DNA from: Euglena gracilis
Taxonomy: Eukaryota
Assembly (NCBI GenBank): GCA_039621445.1
Contig: CP154954.1
Coordinates: forward strand, 38,053,703 to 38,117,702
Direction of reading: 5' to 3'
Length of the DNA: 64,000 nucleotides
Of the stretch, positions 6,157-57,789 are shown piece after piece; position 1 is the first letter of the stretch; the number at the start of each line of letters is the position of its first letter. The position numbers and the translations under genes were made by a program. The notes under the pieces are model-generated. The model had not been told where the DNA came from. It saw only the letters and a list, made by a program, of their open reading frames with translations, and did no database searches.

Positions 6157-6618
6157 GCCTTTCGCTGGGAATTCGTCGACCTGATCCTGGACAAGTTCCA
6201 CATTCAGCGAGAAGGTGTGCAGGAAGCATTTGCATCATGGGAAAATGCAAGATTGCAGAAATTCTGGACGAAGGAGGACAATGCATTTGCGAAGACATGG
6301 ACATGGGAAAGGATCTGGGCCAATCCCCCATGGACATTGATGAACCAAGTCATCCTCAAGATCATCGCGGACCAAGTGCAGGAGATGGTGCTGATTGCAC
6401 CGGAGTGGCGTACGACTACATGGTGGCCAGTGCTGCAGAAGATGACAGTGAAGTTCTTCATCTTCGAGGAAGGAACCCGGTTCTTCGAGATCTGGGACCA
6501 GCAAGCGGGCCAGATGCAGCCGACTGGGCCATTGCGTTGGCCAGTCCGGGCGCGTTTGGTCCGATACCGAAGATTCCAGGAGGAGTCCCTGAAGGACATG
6601 CCCCCAGCAAGCAGATGA
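6157..6618 (+). pseudogene. DNA N6-adenine methyltransferase-like domain (Dam-type, as carried by DIRS-like retroelements)
   Basis: EAFASWENARL..F...DNAF...W...WANPPW..VLIAPEW....WWPVL, with the NPPW catalytic motif at 6322-6333. In frame with ORF 5584-6156 except for one TAA at 6154-6156. Confidence 0.75.
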
Positions 6619-21861: not shown

Positions 21862-24800
21862 ATGGGAGAAAAGACCAGAAGTCTCCCGGAGCAGGTCGAC
21901 AGATGTACAAGCTACCACTGGGGTACAAGTTTTACCCGCCAAGTACAAGTCAAGGCCAGTGGTGGTGAGAAGCTGCAGAAGCCCATCATGCTGTCCAGGG
22001 CTTCTCAGCCCTTGTGGCCTGCTGAGGCCTTTACAGTTTATCTGGTTTCCTTGGGCCTGAAAAGGCCCCCCCAGCCACTGGGCCTGAAAAGGCCCCCCCA
22101 GCCACTGGGCCTGAAAAGGCCCCCCCAACCACTGGGCCTGAAAAGGCCCCCCCCCCCTGCCACTGGGCCTGAAAAGGCCCCCCCTGCCACTGGGCCTGAA
22201 AAGGCCCCCTCAAACATTTGTTGTCTGTTTCCATTTGTCGCCTGGGACACATTTACATTCTTCTTCTTTTTGTGTGCACTTGCTCACCTGACAAGGGAAA
22301 AACTTCTGCACTCATTTCAAGTTGCAGCATCCACACCCCCACCCACCAACCCACCAAGCACCCAAAACCCCCATGGTCACAAGCTGGTTCTGCTGACATG
22401 GAGCCCCAAAACTGTCAGATACTGTTCCCTTGTTCCCCAAAAACCCACTCTGCAGTTTTGGGAACCAAAAAGTGCTCTGCAAACCCCTGGAGATTCCATT
22501 TTGCTCAAAACTGCCAGGCCCAATTTGCTGAAAGCCACCCAAGCGACACAGAAAGTCAAAGCCTCTGTTTCCCCAAAAGCTGCCAGACACACTTTCCTCC
22601 ACGCAACCGGAATAACCCCAGAGCCCCAACCGCCCATTTCCTGCAGACCCCCGGAACTGGAGTTTCAAAGGAAAAGGGATAGCTGGCCCAAACGCATGCC
22701 CACCAAGAAGCGGCAAAACCCCAGCACTTGCACCGGTCACCACAGTCGCTTGGGGCGCGGGGAAGGAATTTTGTCCTGTGGTGACATTCAGCCAAACCCA
22801 GGCCCCGCAGTTCCCCCACAGACTGAAATTGACTTCAGCGAGGATCCAGCGAGGGCTGTCGGCTTCTTGATGGCAACTGCCTCGGTCCCACCCACCCTTG
22901 CCCCACTCTTGGAAACCTCTTCGCAAGGTGGCCGGAATCTACAACAGCTCCTTCTGGACCTCATTGGGGGTGACCCAGCTCAGAGCGAACAGCCTTTGAA
23001 CCCTGCCTCGGCCCCATTGCCACACAGCGTCGCAATGAACATTGATGCCGCATCCCACCCCCTCTCATCACCATGCCCTGACCTTCATCCAACTTGGGAA
23101 GAAATCGCCCACGATCTTCGTGGGTCAATCAGCCTTATCCCTCGCGGGGCCATCCAAGCAGTGGCCGAGGTCTATTGCACACTCTTGCGCCGCCTGAACG
23201 AACAAAGCACCTGGGAAGCCATGCACGCCCTTTGGTGCTTCCCAAAGGCAGTGTTGGCACCCTTTGGCCGTGGTGGGCGCGGTCACTGGGCACGTCTTGG
23301 CCACATCCTGCAGGCTCGAGCACGACAATACCTAAGCCGCCCGACGCTGGAGAGTTGGGAGGACACTTCCCCTCCAGTGGAAGAAACTAACGCACGAAAG
23401 AGACCACGTACTAGACTGGCTGCCCCGAAAGAGGAAGAAGTAACAAAAGAGGATTTTGTCTCCAGACTAGAACGACTGGTCGGCAGGGGTGCTGTATCCA
23501 AAGCGTGCAACCTGTTGACTTCCGATGGTGTTCAAAATCCCGACAACCACTTGGTACGTGAACGCCTCCGGCAATTACATCCACATGAACCGCCTCCTGG
23601 ACTTGGCCCAACGACCATGAGACGTTGGCTACCAGCTGCCACTCTTGAGGAAGACATGCAACAACGCCGGACAATAGTGCGAAAGGCAGTCTTCAGCTTT
23701 GGCCCAGAATCCTCACCAGGCCCCTCTGGCTTGAGGCCCGACCACCTTCGGTGTTTGATGGGGCATGATGCAGGTTGCCATGCAGATGACCTTTTGGACG
23801 AACTCACAACCTTCTGTTATCGCACCATTGACAGTGGTTTGCCAAAAGGACCTGCCGCAATCATGGCAGCAGCCAGACTGACAGCCTTGCGAAAAGTGAA
23901 AGCAGCCGAAAACACCGATGATTTCGGCAACCAATGCCCACCTGCTCCAGAAGAAGAGGGAACCAGGCCCATATCAGCGGGCGAATGCCTACGTCGGCTG
24001 GTAGGAAAAGTGATCATGAGACAGGAAGTGGTGAGAACAGCAGTTCGCAACAATCTGCCTGGACAATTTGGCGTTGGCCATTCTGATCCCTGTTCCATTG
24101 TCGCCATTGGGCTTCAGCAGCTTGTCGGCTGTCTCCATCACACAGGTGCTCAGGATTGGGGTGTGTTGCAATTAGACTTTGCAAATGCCTTCAACTGCCT
24201 GCGCCGTGAGGGTATGCTGGACGCTGTTCGAGAACGTTGCCCTGAGATGACAGCATGGATGGAGAGCTGCTACAGTGAGCATTCCACTTTGTACTGTGGG
24301 TTAACCTCCTTCCGCAGCAAAAGTGGTGTGCAACAAGGTGATCCATGTGGTCCTGCGGCGTTCGCAATTGCTGTTCAAAATCTGGTTGAAAAAGTGGGTG
24401 AGCTGGTCGGATGGCAAGCATGGTACCTGGACGATGCCCATCTCGTGGGTACCCCAGCACAACTGGAAACAGCAGTCCGATACATTCTGCGTGAAGGACC
24501 CCTCATTGGGGTTTCCCTGAATATATCCAAGTGTCGGTTGTGGGGACCTGCCTTTGGAATGGAATGGTCCAGCCTCCCAACCAACACAACCCCGCTCCAA
24601 CAAATTCCGGTGCAGGAATATTCTGAAGCAAGTGGCCTCAAGGTCCTTGGACTGCCAGTCTGCCACCTAGCAGGGGGGGCGTTCGCCTCCACTGTTTGGG
24701 CTCCACGAGTCGAAATGGTTCTGAAGGCATGCAATCTCCTACAGCTTGTGCCAAGTGCCCATGTCCAGTACACCCTTTTGCGTCAATGTTTGGATGCATG

Positions 24801-26030
24801 TTGCATCAATGGCCTATTGAGGGGAACTCCACTGCCGCTTGCTGGGGACCAATGCTTATTGCTGAGCCACTGTTTACGAAACACGCTGAGTTGCATCATG
24901 ACAGCACCAGTTGATGACAACCAGTGGTCACAGGCCACCTTGCCACCCGTTTGGGGGGACTAGGAATTAAGGATCCGCAGGAATGCCGACTCGCTGCACG
25001 GTGGTCAGCACAATTGGACTTCCTCCAAAGGGCTGAAACGTTGTTGGGATTTCCGGACTTCGTAATCCGCAATATGAAACCACCAGATTTTGACTCCGCA
25101 CTGACATTGCTGAAGATCTTTGGAGTTGAAGGTCAACCCCTGCAGGCCTTAACAGATGACTCCACCCGTGCAACCCAACTACCACGAGAAATGGTGTCAC
25201 AGAAACACTGGGGGAACATCTGCTCAACGCTGCACCAAAAGAAACTGCAAAAGTCCCTGTCCGGATCCGATGCCATTCGATTTTCCTGCCAAACAAGGCC
25301 TCGTGCCATGGCCTGGACGTGTGCAGTCCCCTCTGCTGGCACAAAAACCCTTGTTCCCACGAAAGAATTTGTTGCCCTCCCCCAATGGACGCTTGGCGCT
25401 CCTGTGGTAAAAACAGAAGAGAGCCACTCTCCCGGATGTCCACGATGCATGAGCCCACTTGACACAGCCAGCCACCACCTCGTCTGCTGCCACCGTAACA
25501 ACCTCGTTCGGCGGCACGGGGCAGTGCAAAGCTTTGTCCTGAACCTGGCACAGCGAGCTGGCTTTCCTGCACGTCGAGAAGAAAAAGCTGAGGACGGAAC
25601 TCGACCGGGTGATGTTTTCATCACTCGATTTGACGCAAATGGACCCGCAGCCATTGATGTCACAGTTAGACACCCACTAGCACCCTCCAGGTCACCTCCA
25701 ACTCAGGTGGAAAATTGGCACATTCGACAGGAAGAAGACAAAATCGCCAAGTATGGGGACCCTTGCAAGCGACGAGGCTGGAAATTTATCCCACTGGTGA
25801 TGGACTGCTACGGTGGCATGAGTGAAGCAGGCAAAAGATTCGTCTCCACATGCATCCGCCACCAAACAAGCCAACATAACGGCTGGGAGAGGCGGGGTGT
25901 GGAGGCCAGTGCATGGCAGGGACTTGGAATGGCTTTGATGCGCGAGCTGGCAAGACAACTGGCATGGGGACAGTGCCCTGAGCAACTACTTGATTGCAAT
26001 AGCGGTGGTACGCATTACCCGTACTTTTGA
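21862..26030 (+). CDS. RT + CCHC finger + restriction-like endonuclease polyprotein, one frameshift near 24945
   Basis: QLDFANAFN, GVQQGDPCGP, WYLDD; CPRC..HLVCC; RPGDVF..IDV..EEDKIAKY; 2A-like GILSCGDIQPNPGP at 22753-22806. Confidence 0.9.
22053..22207 (+). repeat. Six tandem GGGCCT-GAAA-AGGCCC hairpins (~27-nt period)
   Basis: Directly visible in the sequence. Confidence 0.9.
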
Positions 26031-26962
26031 GTGTGACTTCATACAGTGCACCGACCACCTCTACCACCTTCGGTGGCCCACACAGAGCAATGGCCATGAG
26101 GCCAGCTTTCTCACCTCCACTCTCGGACGGCTCTGAAACCACCCCAGGCACAAATCAGCCAATCTGCCAATGACACAAACACGCCAACAGTGGCAAGCAA
26201 AGCACACACTCCCCCCCCACCTCCCCCACCCGCCGTATATATTGAAGATGGGACTTTCCCATTTTCCTCTAACCATTGACCTCGGGACGGGCACGGCACT
26301 CCGTACAACCTTTATGTACTTTACACCCATAGTATCTACCGGCGACCTGTGGCCGCACAGGGAGTCATGAGGAGTTTCTCCTTGTGGCGAGGGCCAAAAG
26401 AGACATATCCCTGGGCCCGGGGCACGGTCTGGGTGAAGCTGTGCTACCCGCCGTGATGATGATGGCGTCGTTCCCTCCTCTCTTCCTGCGCCCTGTCCGC
26501 CAGGTCCCACACCCTGGAAAATGAATCTGGCCATTATTCCGTATGTGAGAACCCAACTTTCAACCTGGAAGAAAAATCCAAAGTGCAAAGATATTTCTCC
26601 CCTGTCATTCCAGATCACAGGCCAGTTTAACCAACCACAGGATCACACACTGGCTCGCACAAGCTTGCAAACAAACGGTCATTCACCTTTCGGGAGGCGC
26701 AGGGGCTATGTGCGGTCATAGCGACTCCTCGCACACACACTCCCCCCCCTTTTCAGCGCTCAGACAGACCTTGAATTCCCCCCCCTCCCGTGGGGATGCC
26801 AAGAGGCACATTTCTTCCGCCTCGGCAGGAGGCACCCAAGGACCTGCCCTTCTCCTCACTCTTCACATTGTTCGCGGGCTGAGTGGACTTACCACGGGAA
26901 GCCTCACCCCCCCCTTCAGCGGAGTGGGTGTTCTTCCCGCAGGTTTCCCGGACCCCCCAACA

Positions 26963-33212: not shown

Positions 33213-35281
33213 AAGAATTTTTGCTGTCTGGCAGTCTTACGGGGGCCTTAAGGCCGAAAAGTAACAAGTTGGGGCTATTATTTCGGTGTGCGCGCTGTAC
33301 GCTGTGCGTCTTCTTACTGGCGGCATATACCGCTGTGAAGTCTTCACAGTGCAGCGCGAGCACGGTGTTGTCGCCGGGGTATCCCCAGAGGCGTATACCT
33401 CAGAATAGCGGGCAGTAGCCCTAAAAACTGTAGATTTGGCATTTGTGCCTTGGGTGTGCAGCCTGTAGGCTGAAGGGTTTGCATTAGCCAAAAATAATGG
33501 GGGGGTAGGCTTTATCGCCCAGAAACATTGCCTTGTGGAATATGCATGGCACAAAAATACTACTGGGTGTATACCCGAATAAAAAAATTTCGGCATATTG
33601 CCAAAAAGATCATACTGAGGTGTACAACCGCAGAAAAAATGCGGAATTGTGGCAGGCTGCTGCCAATTCACAGAACAACTGTGGTTGGTGTGGCTTATAC
33701 CACTTTGAAAAACCGCAAATGAAATGTGAATGCACATAAAAGGATGGAACATTGTTCCAGTGCGGTGAAATTCATCACAAAAAGCTGGATTTCACCATTT
33801 TTGAGCTATGATTCTTATAAACCTTGCAGCATGACACCATTGGTGTTGCACATGATGAAAATTGGGTCCTCAAAATTATATCAGTAAGGGGGTCCCACTG
33901 AGTAAAGTGGGGGGGGTCCGATTATATCGGTAATGGGGGTCCCCCTAAATAAAGTGGGGGGGGGGCAAGAATGCCGTTAGTGCGGTAAGCATAAAAAAAA
34001 AATACTGCAAACATGACAAAATCTCATCATTAGTGACTATGCCACTGAGAAATACTGACTTTTGTCAGATTTTTAGGGAAATCCCTGTCAGGATTAAGGG
34101 CAGAAATGCAGATTCTTCGTCGAGAATTGCATTTTTGTCACCAAAAGTGCAACTTTGTTGCGTTTTGAGTCATTTAAGACTGCAATTGCCAAGTGCACAT
34201 AGTGCTTGTTGAGAGTGTCCAATAACACTGCAGGTTTGTTGTTGTACAGATTTTGGGATTTGGGTGTCTAATAACACCACATCACCCAAAAAGCTGTAAA
34301 ATTGTGCAAAAATATCGCAAAAAAAGCAAAAATACGCTTAAAAATGCAAGTAAAAAATGTCTATGACATCTTGAGCAAAGGAAAAATTGCCATTATCAGC
34401 ATATCCCTTTGCATTCCATTCTGGCATAGTGCCTCATGGTCACTCCCATTAGGGATATGAGTGCCAGAACGGGGAAAAAAATCACCAAAAATTGCAGAAA
34501 ATCAATGATTTAAATGAAAGTTTGCACATAAGTGCTCCTAAAAATGGTTCTAGTGAGTTGAAATGGCTCCAAATTGTGGGCTATAGCCCTCTGAACTGTA
34601 CCAGGCCTAATAGGGCGTACAGAGGGGGTAATGGGCAGAATGCTGCCAAAGGAGCTTAAAAATGGCCATTAGCCAAACTGGTAACGAATGGTAATTAGCC
34701 ATCAGAAACGATGTGGGGAACAGTGTAGAAGCCTTTCAGGCTGATTTGCCAGTCTGGTACATGTTCGTACAAGATTTGGCCCCATATTTGGCTTTACCAA
34801 TAATACCCACGGTGGGTAGCACAGCTTCACCCAAACCGTGCCCCGGGCCCAGGGTAACGTCTCTTTTGGCCCTCGCCACAAGAGGAACCCCCTTGTGACT
34901 CCCTGTGCCGCCACAGGTCGCGGGTAGCTTATACTCTGGGTGTAATGTACAAAAGAGTGCTGAGGGATACTTGTTCAGGGTGCGGAGGTCAGCGGTTAGC
35001 GGAAGATGAGCAAAGGTCACCTTCAATATATATCGGGCGGGGTGGGCGGGGTGGGGGCGCGTTTGTTCCTCTTTGCCACCGGATGGCGTGTCTGTGCCGG
35101 GTTTTGGCTTTATTTGTTTCTCTGTTTTGTTTCTCTGCGTGTGCGTCTGTCTGACCCATTGATTTGCCTTTGGCTTGGCGTGTGGCTCTGCTCAGGGGGC
35201 TCAAGGCCTACAGACAGAATATGGTGAGTTTGAGTTTGCCTTTGGCTTGGCATGTGGCCCTGCTCAGGGGGCTCGAGGCCT

Positions 35282-38200
35282 TCAGACAGAATATGGTGAG
35301 TGGGCAGAAGACAAGGTGATCTCATCCTTGGAAGAATACAAGCTCCAAACGAGCTGTCTGCTGATTTCTCTGATCAGTGTGAAGGACAGGCCTTGCCAAA
35401 TATCTGCTTCTGCGGCCCGCCGTTGCCAACCTTCCCGCTGCCCCAGAAGGGCTTTGAGGAGGGTGGCCATCAAGGAGCGCGCTTCTTGTCCCATGCCCCC
35501 GTAGCAATCCATGACGAATGGCATCAACCGCCAGCCCAGTCGTCGGCATGTTGCATCATATTTGGCATGCTTTTCAGCTTCCTGTCGTGTTTGCCATTGT
35601 GACAGGCTCTCTGCACTTCGCAGCGGATGACTTTGTGCAAGGGTGTGGCGGACTGTCACATCCACTGCAACGGGTCCATCACTGTCCAAGCGAGGAATGA
35701 AGATATCCCCAGGGCGGGAACGGTCATCGGCTCGTTGTTCTTTACGGGCTGTAAATCCTGCCTTCTGTGTTGTGGTTGTCAGAAAATCTTGGACAGCCCC
35801 GTGCCGCCGGGTAATGAAGTTTGATTTGCAGCAAACGAGGTGATGTCCGAGAAAATCTGATTGTCCAAAGCATTTGGGACAGAGGTTCGGATCGGATTCC
35901 GTTGGTGTGAGAGTCATTCCGAGGGACCAACGAAGTGTGCAGCGGAATTCAGCCGTGGGTAACAGGGTGCGGAGACCTTGAGATGGTGTCAAAGCGGCCC
36001 ATGCCATAGCGTGTGGTTGGCATTGGCTTGCAAAGCGTACAGCATCAGGTCCATTCAATGTGTCCCGAAGTGTTTTCTGGCGGGCAAGCATGCTTTGCTG
36101 ATTCCACCAACGTTGTGAATTGTGTGGAGACTGTGCCTGCGGGATCAAGTTTTTGTCACTGGCCCATTGTGGCAGTGGGACCATTTGACCGAGTTCATTG
36201 AGGGCTGTCCGTAAACAATCGTCAACGTCTTTGGGAAGGATGTCCATGGCAGCGGGCAGGCCCAAGACAGAGGGAGCTCTTCGACAGAAGTCCACCACTT
36301 GAGACAATCTGGCGGGCGCACGTTGAAATAGTGGATCGGAGATTCCCAGTCCACCGCATCTGATGGCCAGGGAAACTTGCAACCATTCTTCTGGGGTGCA
36401 AGGGGAGCCGACCATGCTGCTGAATGTTTCCCGAATAATTCCCGACAATGTCTTGCATGCCGCTGTTGCAGAGGCGATTTTGCAGGCGCGCAAGAGGTCA
36501 TTCACTTTGCAAGCGGATAAACAAAAACGAAGCAAGGTGAATTGCACATGCGATTGAGGTAGGTGCTGAAGTACTGTGCAGGAACGTCGGATGTCTTCAA
36601 TGCGCTTATTCCATACTTCTTCACAGAAGCGGTCATCTTGGGGGTGGTGGACAGGGACCCCCAAAACTTTCAAACCTGAACCGGCAACAAAGGCGGTCAG
36701 TGGTATTTGATGCAAGGGGCTGTCCTGTGGCGTTCCCGGAGGAATGCAAGGGACACCTTCTGTTGATGTGAACGCTGGTCCCCACAAGCGACATTTTGCG
36801 GGGTTCACGGCCAACCCAAGCGCTGCTGCCTCGCGAATCAGAAATACAAGGGCATTGTGTAGTTGGGCGGGTGATCCCAGCAGATGGGCGTCATCCAAAT
36901 ACCATCCCTGCCATTCGACCAAGGGGGAGAGGCCCTCACACAGGTCTTGTACGCCCCAGGCGAAAGCTGCTGGTCCACTTGGGTCGCCTTGCTGAGCCCC
37001 CCTCTGGGAAGGCAGACAATGGTTTCCACAATACAGCTTGCTGTGTTGGGCGTAGCACGAATCCAGCCAAGGGCACACTTCTGGGCATCGTCTGCGGATG
37101 GATTGCAGGATTTTTTCTCGTGACAAAGAGTTGAAGGCATTCCTGAAATCCACTTGAAGCAGCCCCCATCGATTGTCTCTGTCCGAGTGCAGAGTGTCCA
37201 CCATTTGTTGGATTCCCATTGCGATCAGTGGACAAGCGTTCGGCACACCAACGCCACATTGTGGAGGACTCAGTTCTTTCAAAGCGTTTACCACTGTGGG
37301 ATGACGCATGAGACATTTGCCAACCAATCGGCGGAGGGTTTCACCTGCTGCGATTGGGCGAGTGTCTTCATCACACACCGTGTGTTCCACAAGGTTTCCA
37401 AAAGCATCCTCTTCCATTGCTCTTTGTTTGTTCTGTTTTCGCAGAGGTGTCAGCCTGGCGGAGGAAAGAATTGGGGCCATGCTGGGGTGAACACCGTTTG
37501 TAATTGCCCGACAGATGAAGGTATCCAGCACCTCGAGGAGGTCTTCTCCACAAGCCCCTGGGTAGTCTCCAACCATGGCCTTGAGGTGGTCAGGTCTCAG
37601 GCCAGAAGGACCCGGCGCGGATTCCTTTGGGAACCCGAAGATGGCTTTGCGCAGATTTTGTAATCGCTCTTTTGTGCTTTCCGGGTCTGAAGGAAAGGTA
37701 ATCGTTTGGGAAGAATCGGACACTGGGATGTGCGGTGGAGGCTCTGGTGGGTGAAGGTCACGTAGCCTTTGGATCACTTTTGGGTCACTGCTGTTTTGGA
37801 CCCCCTCAGAGGTGAGCTCTCGGCAGGCTTTTGAAATAGCCCCGTGGCCAACAAGGCTTTCAATGCGGGAGAGGAACCGTTCTTCAGTTGCCTTGGCTGC
37901 CAGTGCTGTTTTTTGCCTTGTCTGTCTGCCTTGTTGCTTTTGTGGGAGACTGGAGTCCAGCCATGAATCAAACACAGGGCGGGTGAGATACAGGCGAGCG
38001 CGTTCTGCAATTTTTCTCCCCACCATCGCCCAGTTTGAACGCCCGCCACGCTGCAAAGGACAAAGCACCGCTTTGGGGAAGGCCCACAAGGCGTGCAGGG
38101 TTTCCCAGCCAGGGTCCCTGTTGAAATGCTTCATCAGTTGCAGGTAGGTTTGATTGACATTCAGGAGGGCTCCACGTGGCAGGTATACAAGGGTGCCTCG

Positions 38201-38911
38201 ATCGTCAAAAGAAATTTCCTCAAAAGAGGGATGAAGGGATGTTGGGCATGGAGCAGAGAATGGCGTAACCCCAGCAAGGTGATTTTGGCCAATGGGGCTT
38301 GGTGGGGGTCTAGCTGGGGCTGGTGACGATGCTGCTGCGGTTGTTGCCACAGAGGATGAAGAGCTGGCACCCAAAGGGGGGTTGGAGAAGTTGGAGAAGT
38401 TCAGGAAAGGCGTCGCTTGATTTGCTTGCATCCACATGGCTCCAACATCTGACGGGGGGAAGGATCCTGGTCCTTGTGTGCCAATTGGGTTCGCCATGAT
38501 GACCGTGGAGCACATTGAAGGGAGGCCCTGTTGGCCAAAGAACAACGGACCCGGCAGATTTGGGAACCAAGATCCCCTTTCCAAGGGTGGCGCTGCGGGT
38601 GGTGTTGGTGCGGTCGGGGTGATGGAAATTTGTGATGCTGGCGCCATGTCAACGTCCTCAATCGACACCAATGGGGGCTCTGCGGGTGGTGGTGCGGCTG
38701 GAGGGATGGAGATTTGTGATGCTGGCGCCATGTCAATATCCTCACCCGAAACAAATGGTGGGTCCGTAGCTGGCCCGGGGTTGCTTTCAATGTCCCCGCA
38801 GGTGAGTAAAGACCGACCCCGGCCTGCCCCCCCCGATGCTGCCAGGGTGGGCTGTGGGCTGTCTTTTGCCGGCGTGAAAGGCACCAGCACTTTTCTTTGT
38901 TTGGCTGACAT
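35282..38911 (-). CDS. Intact 1209-aa RT + CCHC + RLE protein with an N-terminal 2A peptide
   Basis: GRGRSLLTCGDIESNPGP; LQVDFRNAFN, GAQQGDPSGP, WYLDD; CPKC..HLVCC; RPGDIF..VDV..EAEKHAKY. Confidence 0.95.
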   Translation of the reverse strand: MSAKQRKVLVPFTPAKDSPQPTLAASGGAGRGRSLLTCGDIESNPGPATDPPFVSGEDIDMAPASQISIPPAAPPPAEPPLVSIEDVDMAPASQISITPTAPTPPAAPPLERGSWFPNLPGPLFFGQQGLPSMCSTVIMANPIGTQGPGSFPPSDVGAMWMQANQATPFLNFSNFSNPPLGASSSSSVATTAAASSPAPARPPPSPIGQNHLAGVTPFSAPCPTSLHPSFEEISFDDRGTLVYLPRGALLNVNQTYLQLMKHFNRDPGWETLHALWAFPKAVLCPLQRGGRSNWAMVGRKIAERARLYLTRPVFDSWLDSSLPQKQQGRQTRQKTALAAKATEERFLSRIESLVGHGAISKACRELTSEGVQNSSDPKVIQRLRDLHPPEPPPHIPVSDSSQTITFPSDPESTKERLQNLRKAIFGFPKESAPGPSGLRPDHLKAMVGDYPGACGEDLLEVLDTFICRAITNGVHPSMAPILSSARLTPLRKQNKQRAMEEDAFGNLVEHTVCDEDTRPIAAGETLRRLVGKCLMRHPTVVNALKELSPPQCGVGVPNACPLIAMGIQQMVDTLHSDRDNRWGLLQVDFRNAFNSLSREKILQSIRRRCPEVCPWLDSCYAQHSKLYCGNHCLPSQRGAQQGDPSGPAAFAWGVQDLCEGLSPLVEWQGWYLDDAHLLGSPAQLHNALVFLIREAAALGLAVNPAKCRLWGPAFTSTEGVPCIPPGTPQDSPLHQIPLTAFVAGSGLKVLGVPVHHPQDDRFCEEVWNKRIEDIRRSCTVLQHLPQSHVQFTLLRFCLSACKVNDLLRACKIASATAACKTLSGIIRETFSSMVGSPCTPEEWLQVSLAIRCGGLGISDPLFQRAPARLSQVVDFCRRAPSVLGLPAAMDILPKDVDDCLRTALNELGQMVPLPQWASDKNLIPQAQSPHNSQRWWNQQSMLARQKTLRDTLNGPDAVRFASQCQPHAMAWAALTPSQGLRTLLPTAEFRCTLRWSLGMTLTPTESDPNLCPKCFGQSDFLGHHLVCCKSNFITRRHGAVQDFLTTTTQKAGFTARKEQRADDRSRPGDIFIPRLDSDGPVAVDVTVRHTLAQSHPLRSAESLSQWQTRQEAEKHAKYDATCRRLGWRLMPFVMDCYGGMGQEARSLMATLLKALLGQREGWQRRAAEADIWQGLSFTLIREISRQLVWSLYSSKDEITLSSAHSPYSV

Positions 38912-45941: not shown

Positions 45942-46374
45942 CTCTGCTACCAAGTGTACGTCCCCTGACTCTATTCCCACTGCCTGTCGGCCTACTTACA
46001 CCCTCCCGTGGGAACAGAACCAGGAGAGTAACAAAAAAGAAAGTCTTTCACTTAACTATTAGTTTTTATTGCCTTTGGGCTTTATGCAGAGCACAAGGCA
46101 AACCAGGTGTGATTTTGGAACTTCAGTTCCAGTAGTGTTCTCCTATCGGAGTTCAAACCTTCAAATCTTTGATTTGCCCTTTTGGGCTGATGAAACACAA
46201 AGCAAAACAATAATACCACCTGTGAAAAGAGAAGGCAGATCCGAGCTAGGATAGGCTATTCCTAATTCTGCAATTTGTATTGCAGAACATGGAATAGTAC
46301 TATCTGGCATGACATTGTGCATTTTGCAGTTTGCTGCTATGCACAGTGCCATGTTCATGCTGCCTGGTACACAT
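45942..46374 (-). repeat. Truncated 5' LTR plus tRNA-iMet PBS
   Basis: Minus strand reads ...GGACGTACA-CT-TGGTAGCAGAG. The LTR matches the copy starting at 32288. Confidence 0.75.
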
Positions 46375-49300
46375 AAACCCAACGGGCGTCATGTTTGACG
46401 AAAAATGCCGGGAGCCGAGGTCTGGTCCGCCCAATTCCCCGGAAAATGCTCCACTGCAGGAAACCTCTTTCAGCAGCTGGAAGAAAAAATTCCTGCATCA
46501 GCGGCAGGAGCGACGGCAGCAGGGGGGCACGCTGGTCCACGAGCGGGCGGCACGTAAATTGACCAAAGTCGTGGACCAATGGCAACAGATGGGACGAAAT
46601 CGTGACATCCCGGCCAAGGGCCCTTGGGGGCTGCTTTTTTCTGGTGACATCAACCCCCTGCCTGGACCAACGGCGGGCCCGTGTGGTGAATGTGATCTCC
46701 TGCATGTCTTGGTGGAACAACAAGTACAAGAGATGTTCAAAATACGGGCGGATGAGGAGCCTGCAAAAGGACCAGACGGGACGTCACCTCTCTTTCAGGA
46801 AAGAGAAGCCTTCTGGGTACAGTGCACCCTGTGTGGGTGGTCAAGGCAAACAATAAATTCTGGGTGGTGCTTGTCCCACGTACAGCATTGTGCAGAATTA
46901 CAAAACATTCTTTGCGGCCCGAGAAACACATTGCTGCAGGTGCCAGAAGAACACCTAGCCACAGGCAGGGAAGGTGTGGCTTTCAGCGGTGATGTCCCCC
47001 TGAACCCGGGCCCCAGGAAGGAATCTGAAGCTCACAAAAGAAAAGCACATGGCCATGGGAAAACTGGGCGGGAAGAAGCTGTTCTGACCCATGGTGATGT
47101 GGAGCAGAATCCGGGGCCTATGGAAGGCAGCATGGAGGTGGACTTGGGGGGGTGTCACACCTTACAAGGACCGTGTCCCAAAGGTTTGCGCCATGCATGG
47201 GATGACATAGCACATGACCGAAGGACCACGTTGACATTGATCCCCAGAGGAGCGCTGGGGGAAGTGGCACGAACCCTGACCCTCTTGTTCAGACGATTAC
47301 GACAAGAAGGCTCTTGGGAGGCCTTTCACTCTTTGTGGTGTTTTCCAAAGGCAGTCCTGGCAAGCACTGGTCAGGGTGGACGATCCCACTGGGCCAGAAT
47401 TGGGCGGCTGCTGTGTACCAGAGCCAAGGCGTACCTGGAAAAAGACGTCCATGAATGCTGGGAGTCGTCCAGGCCGTCGGAAGCGAATTTCGGATCCAGC
47501 GTCAAAACCCGATCAGCAAAAAACTAAAGAGGAGGAAATCCAACAAGAAGCCTTTCTCAACAGAATGCAGAAACTGGTGGAAAGAGGGGCAACGGCAAAG
47601 GCGCGTCAGGCAATGTTGTCAGACGGAGTCCAAGATGCAAATGATGCAAAAATTCGTGAGCGTTTACGTCTGCTTCACCCATCAGAAGATCCGCCCGGGA
47701 AAGGGCCCCCCGATGGAAGAGTGCGCCTGCCAGTCCCTGAGGGACAAGAAGGAGACGCCCACATGAAAAAGGCCGTGAGACGGGCCATCCTGTCCTTCAA
47801 AAACGAAACAGCAGGAGGACCGAGCGGGCTGACCATCTCAAAACATTGATATACGCACAGGCTGCGGGCTGTGGTGATGATTTACTGGAAGAAATCTCCG
47901 CCTTTGTCTTCTCGGCAATCCAACAAGGACTGCCTTTGGAAATGGGGTCCATCTTGGCAGGAGCACGACTGACGCCGTTGAGAAAGAAGAAACCACAAAC
48001 AGATGCTGCCGGTAATGTGATGCTGCATACGGACAACGATTTGCAACACGAAGGAACCAGGCCAATTGCGGCAGGAGAAGTTTTAAGACGGTTGCTTGCC
48101 AAAGTTCTGTTAAAAGAAGCCACTGTACGAAACACTCTGATTGACGGGCTGCCTGGGCAAGTCGGTGTAGGCCATTCTGACGCTTGTGCTCTCACCAGTA
48201 TTGCACTGCAACAAATTGTTCAAGGACTGCAAAAGGCAGGGAAAACAGAATGGGCTGTTCTGCAGCTGGATTTTGCAAACGCCTTCAATCAATTGAAACG
48301 GGAACCCATGTTACATCAAGTGCGACAGCAGGTACCACACATGACAGCTTGGACTGAATCATGCCATGGTTCACATTCCCCTTTGTATTGTGGAAACACA
48401 AGCCTGAGGTCCAAAACGGGAGTTCAACAAGGGGACCCTTGTGGCCCGGCTCTTCTCTGCATTGCGGTGCAACCTTTGGTCAACAAAATTGCAGAAATGG
48501 TGCCATGGCAGTGCTGGTACCTGGACGACTGCCATCTAATTGGATCCATGGAACAGCTGGATCGTGTGGTGCGCATGCTTTTGGCAGACGGTCCTGCGAT
48601 TGGGGTCAGTCTGAACATGGACAAATGTCGGCTGTGGGGCCCAGCCGTCAATGATGCCTTTCGCAGATTGCCACAGGGAAGCAGTGTGTTGCAACGAATA
48701 CCGGCAACATCCTTTGTGGAGGGATCTGGAATCAAAGCCCTGGGGATACCTGTGACGTACCCGGGAGATGACACGTTTGCGCGATCCATTTGGCAGGACA
48801 GATTGAAAGCTTGTGAAAAATTGTGCTACTTGCTGCAGTTCATTCCTTCCGGCCACATTCGTTTCCACCTGTTGCGCCATTGCATTCCCAGCTGCAAAGT
48901 AAATGATCTTCTACGAGGAACACCGCTTGAACTCTTCTGAAGATATGGTACGGCTCTTCTCTGCCCTGGTCCGTGACAGTTTGAGCAATATTGCACGAAG
49001 ACAGCTCACTGAAGCTCGATGGGAGCAATCCACCATCCCCATTCGACTGGGAGGCCTGGGCCTGCACGATGCAATAAAGACCAGGCCAGTGGCCAGATGG
49101 GCTGCTATTTTGGATTTCTGCAAAAGAGCAGAACACAGTGTCTCTTTCCCGAAAGAACTTGAGCTATTACCATCAGACTTCGTTCTTACAGGTCGCACAG
49201 TCGAACAAATCACGGGGGAGAGTCATTTGACAACTTTGATACTACAGGACTCCAATCGGATTCCTCACCTGGGGAAAGTGGAAAGTTCCCAGAAATTCTG

Positions 49301-49904
49301 GAACGACAAGCTCTCTGAGAAACGAGGAGCTGACTTGGTAACGCATTCCACCGGGGCTGACAAGGTGCGTATTTTGAGCCAACAGAAACCTCATGCATTG
49401 GCGTGGGTGGCAGCAAACCCTTGTGCAGCAAAAAAGACATTGATGCCCCCAGGTGAATTCCGAGCAGTTCTACGATGGACTCTGGGATGACTGTTGTGGC
49501 TCTACACAAAGGTTTGGAGGCAAAGTGTCCACGATGTGAGACAGTGATGGGTGATCAAGGGAATCACCTGGTTTGTTGCACAAAAAAACAATTTGGCACG
49601 GCGACATGCAGGAATTCAAAACTTCATCCTGCAGATGGCACAGGCGGCAGGCTATACTGCTCGGCGTGAAGAGGGCACTGGAGATGGAAGACGACCTGGG
49701 GAGGTTTTCATCACTAGGTTCGATGCAAACGGCCCGGCTGCAATAGATGTCTCAGTGCGGCATCCACTGGCGCCGTCCCACCCAGTGACTGATCAAAGTT
49801 GGGAACGCTGGCATGAAAGACAGGAGAAAGAAAAAGTGACAAAGTACAAAGATGTATGCAGCAGGCTGGGATGGTCACTTGTGCCCCTGGTCCTGGATTA
49901 TTTT

Positions 49905-52815
49905 GGTGGCATTGGTGATGAAGGCAGAATCTTTTTGGGGACCTGCATCCGAGCCATCCTGGGTCAGAAGGAGCCCTGGGAAAGAAGATCCTGCGAAGCA
50001 GAGTGCTGGCAAGGACAAAGCATTGTGTTGGCCCGAGAAGTGGGTCGACAACTGTCGTGGGCTGAATGCCTCGGATCTGAAGATATGCAAAGTCCTGTTC
50101 TGGCGCATCAACCTTATAATCTGGACTAAAGCACAACCTGCAGGAGGACACAAAGAATGTTTCCCGCAGGCTGCTGAAAATCAAAGGCTACTGCTGAGAC
50201 CGTCCCATCACAATGATGAACAGCAGTATAGTATGTAAGCAACATACCACAATTTGGGACAGCAGACAGAACCGACAAAGATCGGAAATGCATATGACGC
50301 ACAAAAAAACGGTCTGAGAATACTTCCTCAGCTCCTCCAGTCCCCCCATCGCCGGCCCATCACCCTTGCTCTATGTACTTTGCACTTTGCGGTCCACTGG
50401 CCACCCAGGACCTCTTCCAGCCATGACCAACAACATCGGGAAAACAAGGCTTAGGACACAAAGAGCTCTGTCACAACAAACAGCTTGCACTTGCATTGCA
50501 CACGATTCTCATCGTATCCCAGAAACGATGAGTCACAAAAGCCTGGTCTGAAAACACTTCATCTTCACGCAAGAAGACAAAACAGGATTTGGCCCACCAT
50601 GCTGGCCCATCCTGGCACCATGTAATCTGAGGCACCACCAATCACCCGCGTTAGTTATGACCACAAAGATCGGAAATATGGCACATGAGACACAAAAAAG
50701 ATCGACAACGGCCCTCTTACCCTGTGACACGGCTTTGTACATTACGCATATATATTGAACCCGTAACTCCACGTGGTGGCATTGGAGATGAAGACAGAAT
50801 CTTTTTGGGGACCTGCATCCGAGCCATGTTGCGGCAGAAGGAGCCCTGGGAAAGAAGATCCTGCGAAGCAGAGTGCTGGCAAGGACTAAGCATTGTGTTG
50901 GCCCGAGAAGTGGGTCGACAACTGTCGTGGGCTCAATGCCTGGGATCTGAAGATATGCAAAGTCCTGTTCTGGCGCATCAACCTTATAATCTGGACTGAA
51001 GCACAACCTGCAGGAGGACACAAAGAATGTTTCCCGCAGGCTGCTGAAAATCAAAGGCTACTGCTGAGACCGTCCCATCACAATGATGAACAGCAGTATA
51101 GTATGTAAGCAACATACCACAATTTGGGACAGCAGCCAGAACCGACAAAGATCGGAAATCCAGCATATGACGCACAAAAAACCGGTCTGAGAATACTTCC
51201 TCAGCTCCTCCAGTCCCCCCATCGCCGGCCCATCACCCTTGCTCTATGTACTTTGCACTTTGCGGTCCACTGGCCACCCAGGACCTCTTCCAGCCATGAC
51301 CAACAACATTGGGAAAACAAGGCTTGGGACACAAAGAGATCTGTCACAACAAACAGCTTCCATTTGCATTGCACACGATTCTCATCGTATCCCAGAAACG
51401 ATGAGTCACAAAAGCCTGGTCTGAAAACACTTCATCTTCACGCAAGAAGACAAAACAGGATTTGGAGCACCATGCTGGCCCATCCTGGCACCATGAAATT
51501 TGAGGCACCACCAATCACCCGCGTTAGTTATGACCACAAAGATCGGAAATATGGCACATGAGACACAAAAAAGATCGACAACGGCCCTCTTACCCTGTGA
51601 CACGGCTTTGTACATTACGCATATATATTGAACCCGTAACTCCACGTGGTGGCATTGGAGATGAAGGCAGAATCTTTTTGGGGACCTGCATCCGAGCCAT
51701 CCTGGGGCAGAAGGAGCCCTGGGAAAGAAGATCCTGCGAAGCAGAGTAGGTCTAAGCATTGTGATGAATGTCCGAGGTCCCCTTAACCACAGACCAGACT
51801 TCTGCGCCCCATTCCTTTACTTGACATCCCTTTCACTGAAATCTCTTTCCCAAAATCCCACTTCCAGCAGCAATGACCAAACTTGAAATAAACTTGCGCC
51901 GCAGACAAAATCAAACAAATACACTCTCAGGAAAGTAATCCCAGACAATAGAGTGAACAGTGTATGTTGACAGCTACCTACAGACAGCGCCATCATTTTT
52001 TCTGTGAATCACGATCTGCCTGTTTGAATTAGGCTTCAGCCTGTGATTTCATGGTGACCATAAAAATGCACCTGGACCACTCACATGTTGGCCCGAGAAG
52101 TGGGTCGACAACTGTCGTGGGCTCAATGCCTGGGATCTGAAGATATGCAAAGTCCTGTTCTGGCGCATCAACCTTATAATCTGGACTAAAGCACAACCTG
52201 CAGGAGGACACAAAGAATGTTTCCCGCAGGCTGCTGAAAATCAAAGGCTAATGCTGAGACCGTCCCATCACAATGATGAACAGCAGTATAGTATGTAAGC
52301 AACATACCACAATTTGGGACAGCAGCCAGAACCGACAAAGATCGGAAATCCAGCATATGACGCACAAAAAACCGGTCTGAGAATGCTTCCTCAGCTCCTC
52401 CAGTCCCCCCATCGCCGGCCCATCACCCTTGCTCTATGTACTTTGCACTTTGCGGTCCACTGGCCACCCAGGACTCTTCCAGCCATGACCAACAACATCC
52501 GGAAAACAAGGCTTGGGACACAAAGAGCTCTGTCACAACAAACAGCTTGCATTTGCATTGCACACGATTCTCATCGTATCCCAGAAACGATGAGTCACAA
52601 AAGCCTGGTCTGAAAACACTTCATCTTCACGCAAGAAGACAAAACATGATTTGGCCCACCATGCTGGCCCATCCTGGCACCATGTAATTTGAGGCACCAC
52701 CAATCACCCGCGTTAGTTATGACCGACAAAGATCGAAAATATGACACATGAGGCACAAAAAAGATCGACAACGGCCCTCTTACCCGGTAAGCCGGTGACA
52801 CCGCTATGTACATTA

Positions 52816-53510: not shown

Positions 53511-56500
53511 GGCCTGAAAACGCCCCCTCAACACCACCACTGGCCTGAAAAGGCCCTGGGCCTGAAAAGGCCCCATCTGCTACAGGGCCTGACAAGGCCC
53601 GTCCAGCCAGTGGGCCTGAAAAGCCCCCCCCCGCCTTTGGGCCTTCAAAGGCACCTCCATTTGGGCCTGCAAAGGCCCCTCATCTTGGGCTTCCAAAGGC
53701 CCCCCCTTTGGGCCTGCAAAGGCCCCCCATCTGCCAACCATTAAGTGCTACTTTCAGCTCCAAGGTCTTATTTTCTGTGTTCTGCATTGCATCCCAAACC
53801 TTTGATCAATTGAAGTGGCAAACCCCCAGTTTTCACAGCACATGTTACACCAAAAGCTGTGACACATTTTGCAGCAGTTTTGACTTGACATTGAAAAACA
53901 TTTTGCCACCCCAACCCCTCAGTGACACTTTTTGCAGCAGTTTTGACTGTACATTAAAAAACATTTTGCCACCCCAAGCCCTTAGTAACAACGTTTTACC
54001 CCAGTGTCCTGCAAAGTCACTGGGCCTGCAAAGGCCCCCCTGTGACACCATTTCGGTCTGTTGCATTTTGCCCCAGTGGCCTGCAAAGGCCCTAGGCCTG
54101 CAAAGGCCCCCCTCCAACACCATTTTGCTCCAGTGGCCTGCAAAGGCCCTGGGCCTGCAAGCAGCATTTTGTCCCAGTGGCCTGCAAAGGCCATGGGCCT
54201 GCAGGCCCCGCCTTGACACCATTTTTGCTCTCAGCCTGAAAAGCCCCCGACAAACTGGCAAACCATGTTCCTCCACATTTTGGCCTGCAACAGTGGGCCC
54301 CCAGCCAGACAGCACATCCACTTTTTGGTCTGCAACAGTGGCCCCCCGCAGCCAGCCAGTTCTGCCAGATTCTGCTGGCCTTCAACCTTCCCTCAGCAAT
54401 ATGAACTTGACAACCCCCAGGTTACCTCTCCGCTGACCGGAAAAGACCACCCAACGTCGGCCAAACAAAGAAAGTGCTTGTGCCTTACACTCCTGCGAAA
54501 TACAGGACACAGCCTACACTTGTGAGTGGCCTTGCTGCACAGCAACTTTTGGCATGCCAGCCTGTGGCATTACAACATTTGGCATTACAGATTGGTGAAT
54601 TAAGGATTTCCAGCAGAGAAGTTCCTAATTCATTTTTCTGGTAGGGCAAATCCCATGACTTGTTTGCGTGGCGCTGTGGACTGGACTTGAAGGAGTGTTC
54701 TGCTGTATTTGTGCATTTGGCTTATGCTGCGCGCCAAGGGGAAGAAGAATTGGGAAAGTCCCCCTGGGATTGGGTGTCCCAAGTGCCTGGCAAATTCAAA
54801 GGGGAGATTATGCAAAGTCTGCTGGGTGTGCAAGTTCTGTGTTCTGAAGGTTGAAGAATGCCAGTGTTGCGGAAGCTGCCATCTGCATGCCAGCAATTGC
54901 CATTGTGGGCATGCTGCCCGGATCTTTCACAAACAAGTCAGTCCAGCCTGTACAAACAAGTTCTCTGCCCAAGATGCTCAGAAAGTGCATGATCTGGGCA
55001 GTCATGCTGAAGATTGCAATGCCAGATTTGGTCATGGGAAGGTTTCGGACAGAAGTGTTGAAGACAATTTTGGACATGGAGATTCCAAATTCAGACATGC
55101 AATCGAGATGTGCGACAAGGGGGTGCAGACAGAAGGAAAAGCCAGAACAAGGGGAAGAAGAGAGAGGAGGAAGAAAGTGAAGGGGAAGTAATGGCAAGCT
55201 GGACAGGTCAGATTCGAGGTATTTGGCTGATGTTTGTGGCATGCCGCGTGCTGTGTCTGTGGCCAATTCTGGGGCAGTAAACCCAATAAATTACACATGT
55301 CTGTGGGAGATGGCCGCTGAGGGCATGTGGCCATGCCGCGGTGGGTGTTTGCTGGGTGGAAATCTCATTAAATGGCTCGACAGTGGGTTGTGGTGAGCCG
55401 CGGTTGACCAAATTAACTAGAATTTAAATGCCCCAGTTTGCCCATTTCACCCCCTGCTTGGGACCCCACCCACCTCTGGGCCATTTTGGGTGGAAGGGTA
55501 GGTTTCCACCCATGATGGTCCAAGGGGCATCTTTGGGATGTCTTCCCCTGAAAAAGAAGAGGTCATCAGGGGAGGAGGTTCCAAGGGGGTGTGGGTGCCC
55601 TTCCTCTGCAGCCTGCCTGTGTGTTTGCTGTAGGAGTGTCCACCTGAGGGAGCTTTGCCCCAAGACAGGTGCAACACTTCGAACCGTATTTAAAATTCCT
55701 ATTTTTTTATTTTACGGGTGTGACTGCAACCAAGGCCACTTTTTAATTTTTTGACTCGCTTTGTTGGGAGTTGGACCCAGCAAAGCTCGCCCGGAGAGGG
55801 GAGTGTGAGTGGCCTTGCTGCACAGCAACTTTTGGCATGCCAGCCTGTGGCATTACAACATTTGGCATTACAGATTGGTGAATTAAGGATTTCCAGCAGA
55901 GAAGTTCCTAATTCATTTTTCTGGTAGGGCAAAATCCCATGACTTGTTGCGTGGCGCTGTGGACTGGACTTGAAGGAGTGTTCTGCTGTATTTGTGCATT
56001 TGGCTTATGCTGCGCGCCAAGGGGAAGAAGAATTGGGAAAGTCCCCTGGGATTGGGTGTCCCAAGTGCCTGGCAAATTCAAAGGGGAGATTATGCAAAGT
56101 CTGCTGGGTGTGTAAGTTCTGTGTTCTGAAGGTTGAAGAATGCCAGTGTTGCGGAAGCTGCCATCTGCATGCCAGCAATTGCCATTGTGGGCATGCTGCC
56201 CGGATCTTTCACACTGGCAGCATCGGGGGGAGCGGGCCGAGGTCGGTCTTTACTCAGCTGCGGGGACATTGAAAGTAACCCCGGACCTCCTACAGACCCA
56301 CCATTTGTTCCGTGTGAGGATATTGACATGGCGCCAGCATCACAAATCTCCATCCCTCCTGCTGCACCACCGCCCGCAGAGCCCCCGTCGGTGGCGGGTG
56401 AGGACGTTGACATGGCGCCAGCATCACAAATTTCCATCCCGAGGGCCGGCTTCGATCGGTACCATCTTCTGGACGCGCGGCTTCGAGTCCCGATGAGCTA

Positions 56501-57778
56501 AACTCCGATCCAGGGGTGCACGGGACTTGAACCAGCCATGGCATACGGCGCTGCCAGGCGGGGTAAGGAATGGCTGCCGTATGGCGGGAAGTTCCGATGG
56601 CGCCGAGGTAGAAATCAGCAACCAGAGGCTCGACCCTGGCGTGCCTGATGGGTAAGGGCCGGCGAACCATAGATTCAACGGCGTTTGCCCACCTGACGTG
56701 TCACGATTAAACCATTGCGGCTTCGGCCGAGCAGTGACACCAAAGACAAGCAACCCCTATCAAGCACGCCATCGCCAAGCATCAGGAGCTGAGGCAAGGG
56801 ATGGAGGACTTCGAGTGCCTCGAACCCTAGGGCTAATGCCCCCTGGCGGAGTGTAGCTCCACATCCGAGAAAGTGAAACGCTTGGGTCCAGCAAGTTTTT
56901 AAAAAAAAGTCGGCCCACCACCGTTGGAGGAGATTTGAGAGCAAAAAAGGGCATTTGTCATGGATTGCTACGGGGGCATGCGACAGGAAGCGCGCTCCTT
57001 GATGGCCACCCTCCTCAAGGCCCTTTTGGGGCAGCGGGAAGGGTGACATCGGCCGCGGAAGCAGGCATTTGGCAAGGCCTTCCTTCACACTAATGAGAGA
57101 AATCAGCAGATAGCTCGTTCGGAGCTTGTATTCTTCCAAATATGAGATCACCCTGTCTTCCGCCCACTCACCATATTCTGTCTGAAGGCCTTTGAGCTCT
57201 CAACAAAAATCACCAACATTGACCTCTCACCTGCCGTTTACACCCCAAGTTCAGATTACAAAATGAGCAAAGAAGGCACAACTCAGTAACCCCTAGTAAC
57301 CCCTTGAGCAGAGCCACACGCCGAGCCAAAGACATATCAACGGATCACAAAGACGCGGAGAGAAGCAAAACACACAACAGCCAAAAACCCGACACAAACA
57401 CGCCATCCCGTTTCAAAAGAGGTACAAACGCCCCCTCCCCGCCCAATATATATTGAAGGTGACCTTTGCTCATCTTCCTCTAACCACTAACCTCCGCACC
57501 CTGAACAAGTATCACTCAGCACTCTTTTGTACATTACACCCAGAGTATAAACAACCCGCGACGTGTGGCGGCACAGGGAGTAACAAGGGGGTTCCTCTTG
57601 TGGCGAGGGCCAAAAGAGACGTTTCCCTGGCCCGGGGCACGATTTGGGTGAAGCTGTGCTACCTACCGTGTGCTTCTGCAAAAAAGGCGAGGGCGAAAAG
57701 AGACGTTTACCTGGGCCCGGGGGACGGTTTGGGTGAAGCTGTGCTACCCACCGTGTGTTCGTTATCACTAAAAAAAAA
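53511..57778 (+). mobile_element. CRE-type element, copy 4 (relative of copy 2; internally deleted and interrupted)
   Basis: Hairpin array 53511-54210; PCSSTFWPATV and SAKQRK as in copy 2; 2A at 56235-56288; RLE end at 56955-57185; 3' motif A and an A-tail. Confidence 0.8.
54521..56213 (+). mobile_element. TRIM-like non-autonomous LTR element
   Basis: ~410-bp near-identical LTRs TGTGA...TCACA (54521-54931, 55804-56213) with a purine tract before the second LTR. It splits codons PT|LAASGG of copy 4. Confidence 0.85.
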
Positions 57779-57789
57779 GAGCCCATGTT

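Follow-up and report, generated by a model that had tools for sequence, protein, structure and literature searches.

Does a retrotransposon that carries a restriction-like endonuclease (RLE) behind its reverse transcriptase (RT) use a virus-type 2A, or StopGo, peptide in making its proteins? The question is raised by a stretch of 64,000 nucleotides of Euglena gracilis DNA (contig CP154954.1 of assembly GCA_039621445.1, positions 38,053,703 to 38,117,702 of the forward strand; hereafter the window, numbered from its first letter), where a 2A-like motif lies near the N-terminus of P0001, which is one open reading frame (ORF) of 1209 aa on the minus strand. P0001 belongs to the intact copy (copy 2) of a family of long interspersed nuclear elements (LINEs), of which this transposon-rich window contains four copies or more, belonging to three diverged subfamilies, with protein identities between subfamilies of 38-46%. 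Judging from the sequences compared below, the motif is probably a selected, working 2A-type recoding signal of this RLE-type LINE.

2A units ahead of the reverse transcriptase

The 2A peptides of the intact copy, of a second copy (copy 1) and of an internally deleted derivative from the subfamily of the intact copy read exactly as written in the original prediction, and a further copy (copy 3) holds additional motifs:

38771..38824, minus strand: 2A (StopGo) unit in the intact copy, covering residues 30-47 of its 1209-aa ORF, GRGRSLLTCGDIESNPGP
22753..22806, plus strand: 2A unit of copy 1, GRGEGILSCGDIQPNPGP, with E changed to Q at the glutamate
56235..56288, plus strand: 2A unit of the derivative, GRGRSLLSCGDIESNPGP
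46988-47014, plus strand: copy 3 motif GDVPLNPGP
47093-47119, plus strand: copy 3 motif GDVEQNPGP
46643-46669, plus strand: decayed motif of copy 3, GDINPLPGP

At 38771-38824 the 2A exists only on the minus strand, the plus-strand reading being an unrelated peptide with a stop. In a six-frame scan, GD(V/I)xx precedes five of the six NPGP found in the window, and the extended pattern GD(V/I)xxNPGP, present five times, is absent from all 60 simulated windows (first-order Markov), in which plain NPGP occurred 2.3 times on average and at most 6 times. The corresponding DNA pattern for NPGP, AAYCCNGGNCC, has 6 matches versus 2.13 expected, a number reached by 2 of 100 shuffles; because this enrichment is only mild, NPGP alone is weak evidence and it is the extended motif that counts. 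All five extended motifs lie upstream of, and in frame with, RT-bearing reading frames, and they are distributed over four copies of one retroelement family, each full-length copy having its canonical 2A close to the beginning of the ORF. The exact form D(V/I)ExNPGP is found in the intact copy, in the derivative and in one of the copy 3 motifs, the other having P in place of E. The motifs are indeed, as had been proposed, canonical 2A units placed ahead of the RT; the element that carries them has a C-terminal CCHC knuckle and an RLE.

Conservation was examined over 40 NPGP instances from the ORFs of the window and their relatives, chosen for having NPGP, of which 38 have a 2A-like context. 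The conserved unit runs from position -17 to 0 (about 18 residues) and reads G-R-G-x-x-L-L-x-C-G-D-V/I-E-x-N-P-G-P, with L in 29/38 instances at -12, G in 34/38 at -8, D in 33/38 at -7, V or I in 37/38 at -6 and E in 32/38 at -5, while flanking positions reach at most 11/38. Set against its neighbouring residues, a comparison raised in the original prediction, the 2A unit is conserved between drifting flanks. At the nucleotide level, the intact copy and the derivative differ at 5 of the 54 nt of the 2A, and these substitutions look selected, since four are synonymous and the remaining one, T to S, falls at a variable position.

The distribution of the 2A among relatives is uneven. It is carried by 12 of 76 homologs and by 6 of 150 representatives, and all three relatives of at least 39% identity that have upstream sequence possess three 2As each. 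We built a FastTree phylogeny of 86 rows subsampled from 187, in which 46 2A-less rows with upstream sequence and 55 truncated rows had been dropped in BLAST order; 14 of its 16 2A rows group in one starred (supported) clade of 31 rows that includes the intact copy of the window. When only the rows of this tree with at least 60 aa of upstream sequence are considered, the 2A occurs in 14 of 18 inside the clade versus 2 of 43 elsewhere. The 2A is a feature of the clade, not of the family, and its pattern of conservation suggests that it has been inherited and selected in that one clade.

An R2-like element and its modular relatives

The 2A of the intact copy belongs to an uninterrupted element whose parts are the following:

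35282..38911, minus strand: intact single ORF P0001, 1209 aa, with leader, 2A, repeat-coded linker, conserved N-terminal domain, RT, CCHC and RLE
38825..38911, minus strand: leader of 29 residues, between the 2A and the ATG at 38911, with a stop in the same frame 17 codons upstream of that ATG
38585..38770, minus strand: repeat-coded segment directly C-terminal to the 2A, residues 48-109, 84-bp unit repeated 1.9 times
36782..37291, minus strand: RT core (Pfam RVT_1), residues 541-710, with YLDD (residues 671-674) at 36890-36901
35558..35881, minus strand: CCHC knuckle (35828-35881) and RLE motifs RPGD (35699-35716), DVTV (35651-35662) and E..K (35558-35581)
34808..35281, minus strand: 3' untranslated region (3' UTR) ending ...CTACCCACCGTG, without poly(A); 34808 is the 3' boundary of the element

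The family is a retrotransposon without long terminal repeats (a non-LTR element) of R2-like type, with one ORF, an N-terminal helical domain, RT, CCHC knuckle and RLE. Pfam, at E values up to 0.1, recognised RVT_1 (E=9.4e-11) alone in P0001 and P0002, and the search for an apurinic/apyrimidinic endonuclease (APE) found no Exo_endo_phos match in these two proteins or in seven relatives scanned. The architecture is of the RLE type, since YLDD, the CCHC knuckle, RPGD, DVTV and E..K follow each other in the expected order. When the 1209-aa protein was searched against the PDB as a single sequence, its sole match was the ...GEGRG-SLLTCGDVEENPG tail of chain 7p2p_B, an expressed construct, a tail that we take to be a T2A remnant. 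As this search gave only a 2A-like tail, a profile search was needed, and a profile built from 25 family members matched R2 (9nl3_A, E=7.2e-30; 9dou_A, 1.3e-29) and LINE-1 ORF2p (1.7e-7). The match with R2 forms one stretch that starts before the RT and takes in the CCHC knuckle as well as the nuclease motifs; in it, profile positions 248-965 align with R2Tg 632-1361, including C..C..H..C, RHN, E, (K/R)PD, DVTV and K. An AlphaFold model of residues 231-1209 (predicted local distance difference test, pLDDT, 89.1; predicted template modelling score, pTM, 0.87) had R2 as all seven best Foldseek matches (E 1e-22 to 2e-18, template modelling score 0.48-0.59), followed by LINE-1 ORF2p and Prp8. Profile and fold both uphold the earlier assignment to the RLE type, with a CCHC knuckle and a PD-(D/E)XK nuclease C-terminal to the RT and collinear with R2.

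The likeness to R2 (9nl3, 9dou, 8gh6, 8ibw) extends from the order of parts, beginning before the RT and passing through thumb/linker and CCHC knuckle to the PD-(D/E)XK nuclease, to the 3' end, which lacks poly(A) and follows a conserved 3' UTR. R2 proper was nevertheless rejected as the identity of the element: there is no Pfam N-terminal zinc-finger/Myb domain here, the window has no ribosomal RNA match or ribosomal DNA target, and the flanks vary from copy to copy. R2 also differs in that no 2A has been described in it.

Copies 1 and 2 and the derivative have in common the 3' UTR and its terminal sequence, beyond which their flanks differ. Four such shared 3' ends occur in the window, together with fragments and 5'-truncated copies; the element has a fixed 3' end, variable 5' truncation and no LTRs. 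The 3' UTR DNA is approximately 78-81% identical (34808-35096, minus strand; 26174-26455 and 56952-57670, plus strand) although the proteins share only 46%. When the 3' UTRs of four copies are folded to a consensus, 29 pairs result, and 3 of these show compensatory changes; as in R2, the RT may recognise the conserved 3' UTR as an RNA element.

Sequencing runs add to this picture. DNA run X1 contains 8571 contig pieces that match the element at 90% likeness or more, and 64 of its contigs diverge exactly at 34808 into unlike sequence (consensus agreement beyond 34808 is 0.35, and the flanks of the window copies also differ); the 3' boundary is therefore fixed and the insertion sites are many. 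The region 5' of the ATG of the intact copy is still highly repeated in this run. The summed contig depth of X1, higher in 3' and lower in 5', resembles 5' truncation and was not used, since depth cannot rank the parts of a gene. Contigs of RNA-labelled libraries cover much of the ORF, one of them spanning the 2A site, and 10 of 46 pieces from a leaf-litter metatranscriptome are at least 99% alike; the parts left uncovered in RNA-labelled runs (38256-38543 in X16 and X15) carry no evidential weight. A contig of run X17 lacks one 84-nt repeat unit.

What precedes the 2A differs from earlier expectations. The leader had been described as repeat-encoded, which is wrong for the intact copy: it consists of 29 unique residues, and the 84-bp repeat codes for residues 48-109, C-terminal to the 2A. 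The repeats sit after the 2A and the repeat-encoded segment therefore stays on the RT protein. The leader had also been called dispensable, a description that does not suit the longer relatives, where recognisable domains, rather than filler, lie upstream of the 2As. Other tandem repeats lie just 5' of the ORFs, with a 102-bp unit repeated 5.8 times at 39088-39684 before the intact copy, and a 27-bp unit common to the regions before copy 1 (22052-22209) and the derivative (53556-54203). These repeats are reminiscent of the promoter monomers in some LINE 5' UTRs.

The longer relatives are polyproteins punctuated by up to four 2As, which in P0006, P0007, P0011 and P0017 lie between Pfam domains. 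Representative arrangements are:

P0006: SLBP-like RNA-binding domain, 2A, cysteine-rich part, 2A, Dam-like part, 2A, RT-RLE
P0007: same order as in P0006
P0011: SLBP-like domain directly ahead of the last 2A
P0022: four 2As
P0238, 2109 aa: first module of 754 residues before the first 2A-like site, with a lysine/glutamate-rich start and many GWNP repeats (GW type)

In P0006, P0007 and P0011, the SLBP-type histone-hairpin RNA-binding domain (Pfam PF15247, E down to 2.6e-20) forms a separate module bounded by 2As. This module could bind RNA in the way that ORF1p does, perhaps at a hairpin of the 3' UTR. Copy 3 and P0007 can be aligned one module after another: the decayed motif of copy 3 falls on the first 2A of P0007, its zinc-finger module is 33% identical, and two 2As follow between which the Dam-like module is missing. 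Copies 1 and 2 of the window are reduced forms that have lost the upstream modules and kept the last 2A.

Protein separation, attenuation or relic

The analysis shows the motif, where and in which frame it lies and how it is conserved, along with an R2-like architecture and relatives built of modules; skipping and its effect on protein ratios are inferred. A ribosome arriving at NPGP would release the upstream peptide between the glycine and the final proline; in the intact copy, this peptide would have 46 residues (29 from the leader, followed by the 2A as far as the glycine). Translation would then resume from the proline and produce an RT-RLE protein with a defined, uniform N-terminus. In the longer relatives, up to four 2As would split one long ORF into an SLBP-like RNA binder, a zinc-finger module, a Dam-like methyltransferase module and the RT-RLE protein, the 2As thereby replacing separate ORFs. 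As continuation after a 2A is usually incomplete, a second likely effect would be the production of less RT than upstream products, with a yield that falls along the ORF.

The 2As themselves have very close viral counterparts. The last 13 residues of the 2A of the derivative are those of WP-LV48 2A2, as given in a table of PMC11512398. In the same table, kunsagivirus C1 2A1 is identical to the 2A of the relative P0046 over the last 17 residues, an identity to be explained either by strong convergence or by picorna-like viruses and LINEs having exchanged the unit. A second flavour of 2A in the relatives, W-x-x-D/L-x-x-D-G-D-V-E-x-NPGP, resembles the multi-2A picornaviruses of that table. Taking all this together, we tentatively propose, with somewhat less than even confidence, that the window copies are reduced members of an undescribed RLE-type LINE lineage in which a string of 2As would yield up to four proteins per message (an SLBP-like stand-in for ORF1p, a zinc-finger protein, a Dam-like protein and RT-RLE), with a dosage falling towards the RT, and in which near-identity with viral 2As would reflect exchange or strong convergence.

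Several observations weigh against a working signal that frees the RT. In the accessible text of PMC11512398, WP-LV48 2A2 and kunsagivirus C1 2A1 gave in vitro the upstream product and no detectable downstream product. Nothing tells more strongly against a simple 'cut and continue' than this behaviour of the nearest viral 2As and, were the elements studied here to behave alike, the RT would have to be synthesised by some other route. Of the four copies that carry a 2A, one alone is intact; in copy 1 the E is replaced by Q, the sole change described as tolerated at that 2A glutamate in the accessible text of PMC3708506, and copy 3 has one motif with E to P and one that is decayed. In the intact copy, no function can be recognised in the leader of 29 residues, so that its removal brings no evident gain. 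Within the wider family, 108 of 125 relatives with at least 60 aa of upstream sequence lack a 2A, so that it is not needed for this kind of element. The conservation table was picked on NPGP, and one of its 38 rows (P0090 at 615) passed only by overlapping the preceding motif. Finally, the RNA evidence consists of contigs of RNA-labelled libraries, in which DNA carry-over is possible.

The missing downstream product of the nearest viral units motivates a rival explanation, namely that the 2A attenuates: it would mostly end translation and keep RT-RLE scarce, or dependent on a re-start at a nearby methionine, the freeing of the RT being incidental. We regard this as rather unlikely, and the weight given to it overlaps with that given to a working 2A. 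Beyond the in vitro results, it agrees with the report, in the accessible part of the 2026 preprint PMC13405545, that most retrotransposon 2A-like peptides lowered protein abundance (70% of the ORF1p and 59% of the ORF2p occurrences tested), and with a leader that in the intact copy has just 29 residues and no recognisable domain. A candidate re-start also exists, as a methionine-bearing acidic motif (DIDM, DVDM or MAVDV[DE]) is located C-terminal to the last 2A in 7 of 20 proteins examined, or 8 if the unflagged MEVDL of copy 3 is included. In P0001, a short acidic motif with methionine is found at residues 57-61 and 86-90 (around 38642-38743 of the window, minus strand), and the motif is also present in the relatives P0006, P0007, P0011 and P0017-P0019; possibly it shows where the RT protein began in the ancestor, or serves as a re-start codon. 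Against attenuation, the 2As of the longer relatives sit exactly between folded modules, an arrangement that fits separation and requires every product to be synthesised, the RT at the far end too. Moreover, the context upstream of the last 13-17 residues affects activity, so that the viral results may not transfer to these elements.

A working 2A has also to be set against the idea that, in the copies with short leaders, it is a functionless leftover of polycistronic ancestors that persists only through the youth of the copies. All upstream modules have gone from copies 1 and 2, two of the three copy 3 motifs are decayed and three of the four 2A-bearing copies are dead, as would be expected of a relic. 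Yet the motif has been kept across subfamilies that are only 38-46% identical and in which the residues on either side cannot be aligned, four of the five 2A differences between two related copies are synonymous, and the unrelated short-leader relatives P0016, P0027 and P0031 keep a 2A, all of which makes a leftover improbable. Much less credible still is an origin of the motifs as chance matches, assembly chimeras or integrated pieces of a picorna-like virus. Some 2As are certainly identical to those of picornaviruses over 13-17 residues, but none of the 60 simulations produced a match, neither the position nor the frame of the motif changes among four genomic copies and many independent contigs, contigs of other runs cover the site, and the ORFs scanned contain no viral capsid or RNA-dependent RNA polymerase (RdRp) domain. 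An endogenous RNA virus was rejected, as the ORFs scanned hold no viral genes.

Other elements of the window and known 2A carriers

Searching the window by tblastn with the intact 1209-aa ORF located the remaining copies and fragments of the family, which are listed here with one isolated reading frame related to their cargo:

22696..26455, plus strand: copy 1, 46% aa identity to the intact copy (tblastn 22702-25967), one frameshift near 24940, 3' UTR end at 26455
46331..50123, plus strand: copy 3, 38% identity (tblastn 47144-50123), frameshift near 48920
54254..57755, plus strand: dead derivative, approximately 90% identity to copy 2 (tblastn 56211-56438 and 56951-57182)
57772..60160, plus strand: 5'-truncated copy of a distant subfamily, 29% identity (tblastn 57790-60160), start near residue 350
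3250-4929, 8192-9494 and 12319-13330: family fragments (tblastn)
6157..6615, plus strand: isolated Dam-like methyltransferase reading frame with the motif NPPW (Pfam match to Dam-family N6-adenine methyltransferases, E=2.3e-10, 40.8 bits versus a cut-off of 28.1)

Copy 3 consists, in order, of the decayed 2A, the zinc-finger module, GDVPLNPGP, GDVEQNPGP and the RT body. The derivative begins with a 5' part and a leader insertion or duplication of about 1.7 kb, followed by the 2A and a jump to the last 80 or so codons and the 3' UTR, whose terminal 85 bp are tandemly duplicated (57602-57772, plus strand). The 5'-truncated copy starts approximately 15 bp beyond this duplicated tail, an arrangement that may reflect insertion beside the tail of another copy; as it starts near residue 350, it has no 2A region. 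The isolated Dam-like frame at 6157-6615 is homologous to the 2A-flanked module of P0006, P0007, P0017, P0083 and P0087; a PDB search with this frame gave no match, and, among the papers listed in our literature search and judged by title, there was no report of a Dam-like methyltransferase as cargo of non-LTR elements. The window also contains the pol gene of a Ty3/gypsy LTR retrotransposon at 26863-29594 (minus strand), with RT, RNase H, integrase zinc finger and SH3 spread over three frames.

Among known 2A carriers, the elements L1Tc/Ingi, CR1, L2, Rex1 and Crack (Heras 2006; Odon 2013, PMC3708506) are alike in having, in the accessible accounts, an in-frame virus-type 2A in the N-terminal part of a long and often single ORF, and also in that their motifs vary within a genome, some being decayed (PMC3708506). 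These elements have an N-terminal APE and one 2A, whereas the family described here has no APE, carries a C-terminal CCHC knuckle and RLE like R2, and in its longer relatives strings up to four 2As between accessory modules. In the accessible parts of PMC3708506 and of its commentary PMC3894237, 2As are tied to 'young' APE-type LINEs, and the 'ancient' RLE clades appear as single-ORF elements without mention of a 2A; similarly, most 2A-bearing ORF2p-like proteins carry an APE domain according to the accessible text of PMC13405545. The only precedent that we found for a 2A-like peptide in an RLE-bearing element comes from the same text and is Dualen/RandI of Haematococcus lacustris, which likewise has extra N-terminal domains fused to it. 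As described there, Dualen possesses both APE and RLE and its cargo is DUB or pentatricopeptide, in contrast with the RLE-only family of the window and its SLBP-like, zinc-finger and Dam-like modules, each bounded by 2As.

The polyproteins of multi-2A picornaviruses, and T2A, offer the same peptides and, as far as the accessible part of PMC11512398 describes them, several 2As cutting one ORF; the picornaviruses are RNA viruses, whereas the carrier here is a genomic retrotransposon without capsid, protease or RdRp genes. In public RNA data, 2As have been reported in 580 RT-bearing contigs, about 79% of them non-LTR-like, with neither endonuclease type nor modules resolved in the accessible text (10.64898/2026.09.24.754024), and the present family may be among these 'non-LTR retrotransposon-like' 2A contigs. 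One 2A class has been noted in dinoflagellates, its protein context not being given in the accessible part of the report (Rao 2025, PMC12338488).

The CRE clade (CRE1/2, SLACS, CZAR), the label used in the original prediction, resembles the family in having a single ORF with RT and C-terminal RLE. The CRE elements of trypanosomatids insert in spliced-leader genes; here, Rfam at gathering thresholds gave no match anywhere in the window, whether to ribozymes, ribosomal RNA, small nuclear RNA or spliced-leader RNA. Two distant Cladocopium matches bear the source label '132 kDa protein', presumably the Swiss-Prot name of the SLACS ORF, a label that is no test of CRE membership.

That 2As occur in LINEs was already known. 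The original prediction held that they are known from APE-type and not from RLE elements, and this agrees with our literature searches, which found no report of a 2A in an RLE-only element in the accessible publications; the published cases are in APE-type elements, in Dualen and in unclassified non-LTR-like contigs, and supplementary lists may hold the family. What we did not find in print is the 2A as a clade feature of R2-like elements devoid of APE, with several accessory proteins strung on one ORF. A conserved 2A clade among R2-like elements extends this signal to the other main branch of LINEs, and the multi-2A relatives represent a natural 2A-based polycistron in a cellular mobile element. 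The Dam-like module, if active, would be a new kind of methyltransferase cargo for a retrotransposon. R2-type proteins are under development for gene insertion, as indicated by review listings, and a natural R2-like family that would co-express an RNA binder and helpers through 2As may suggest designs for gene insertion and candidate helper proteins.

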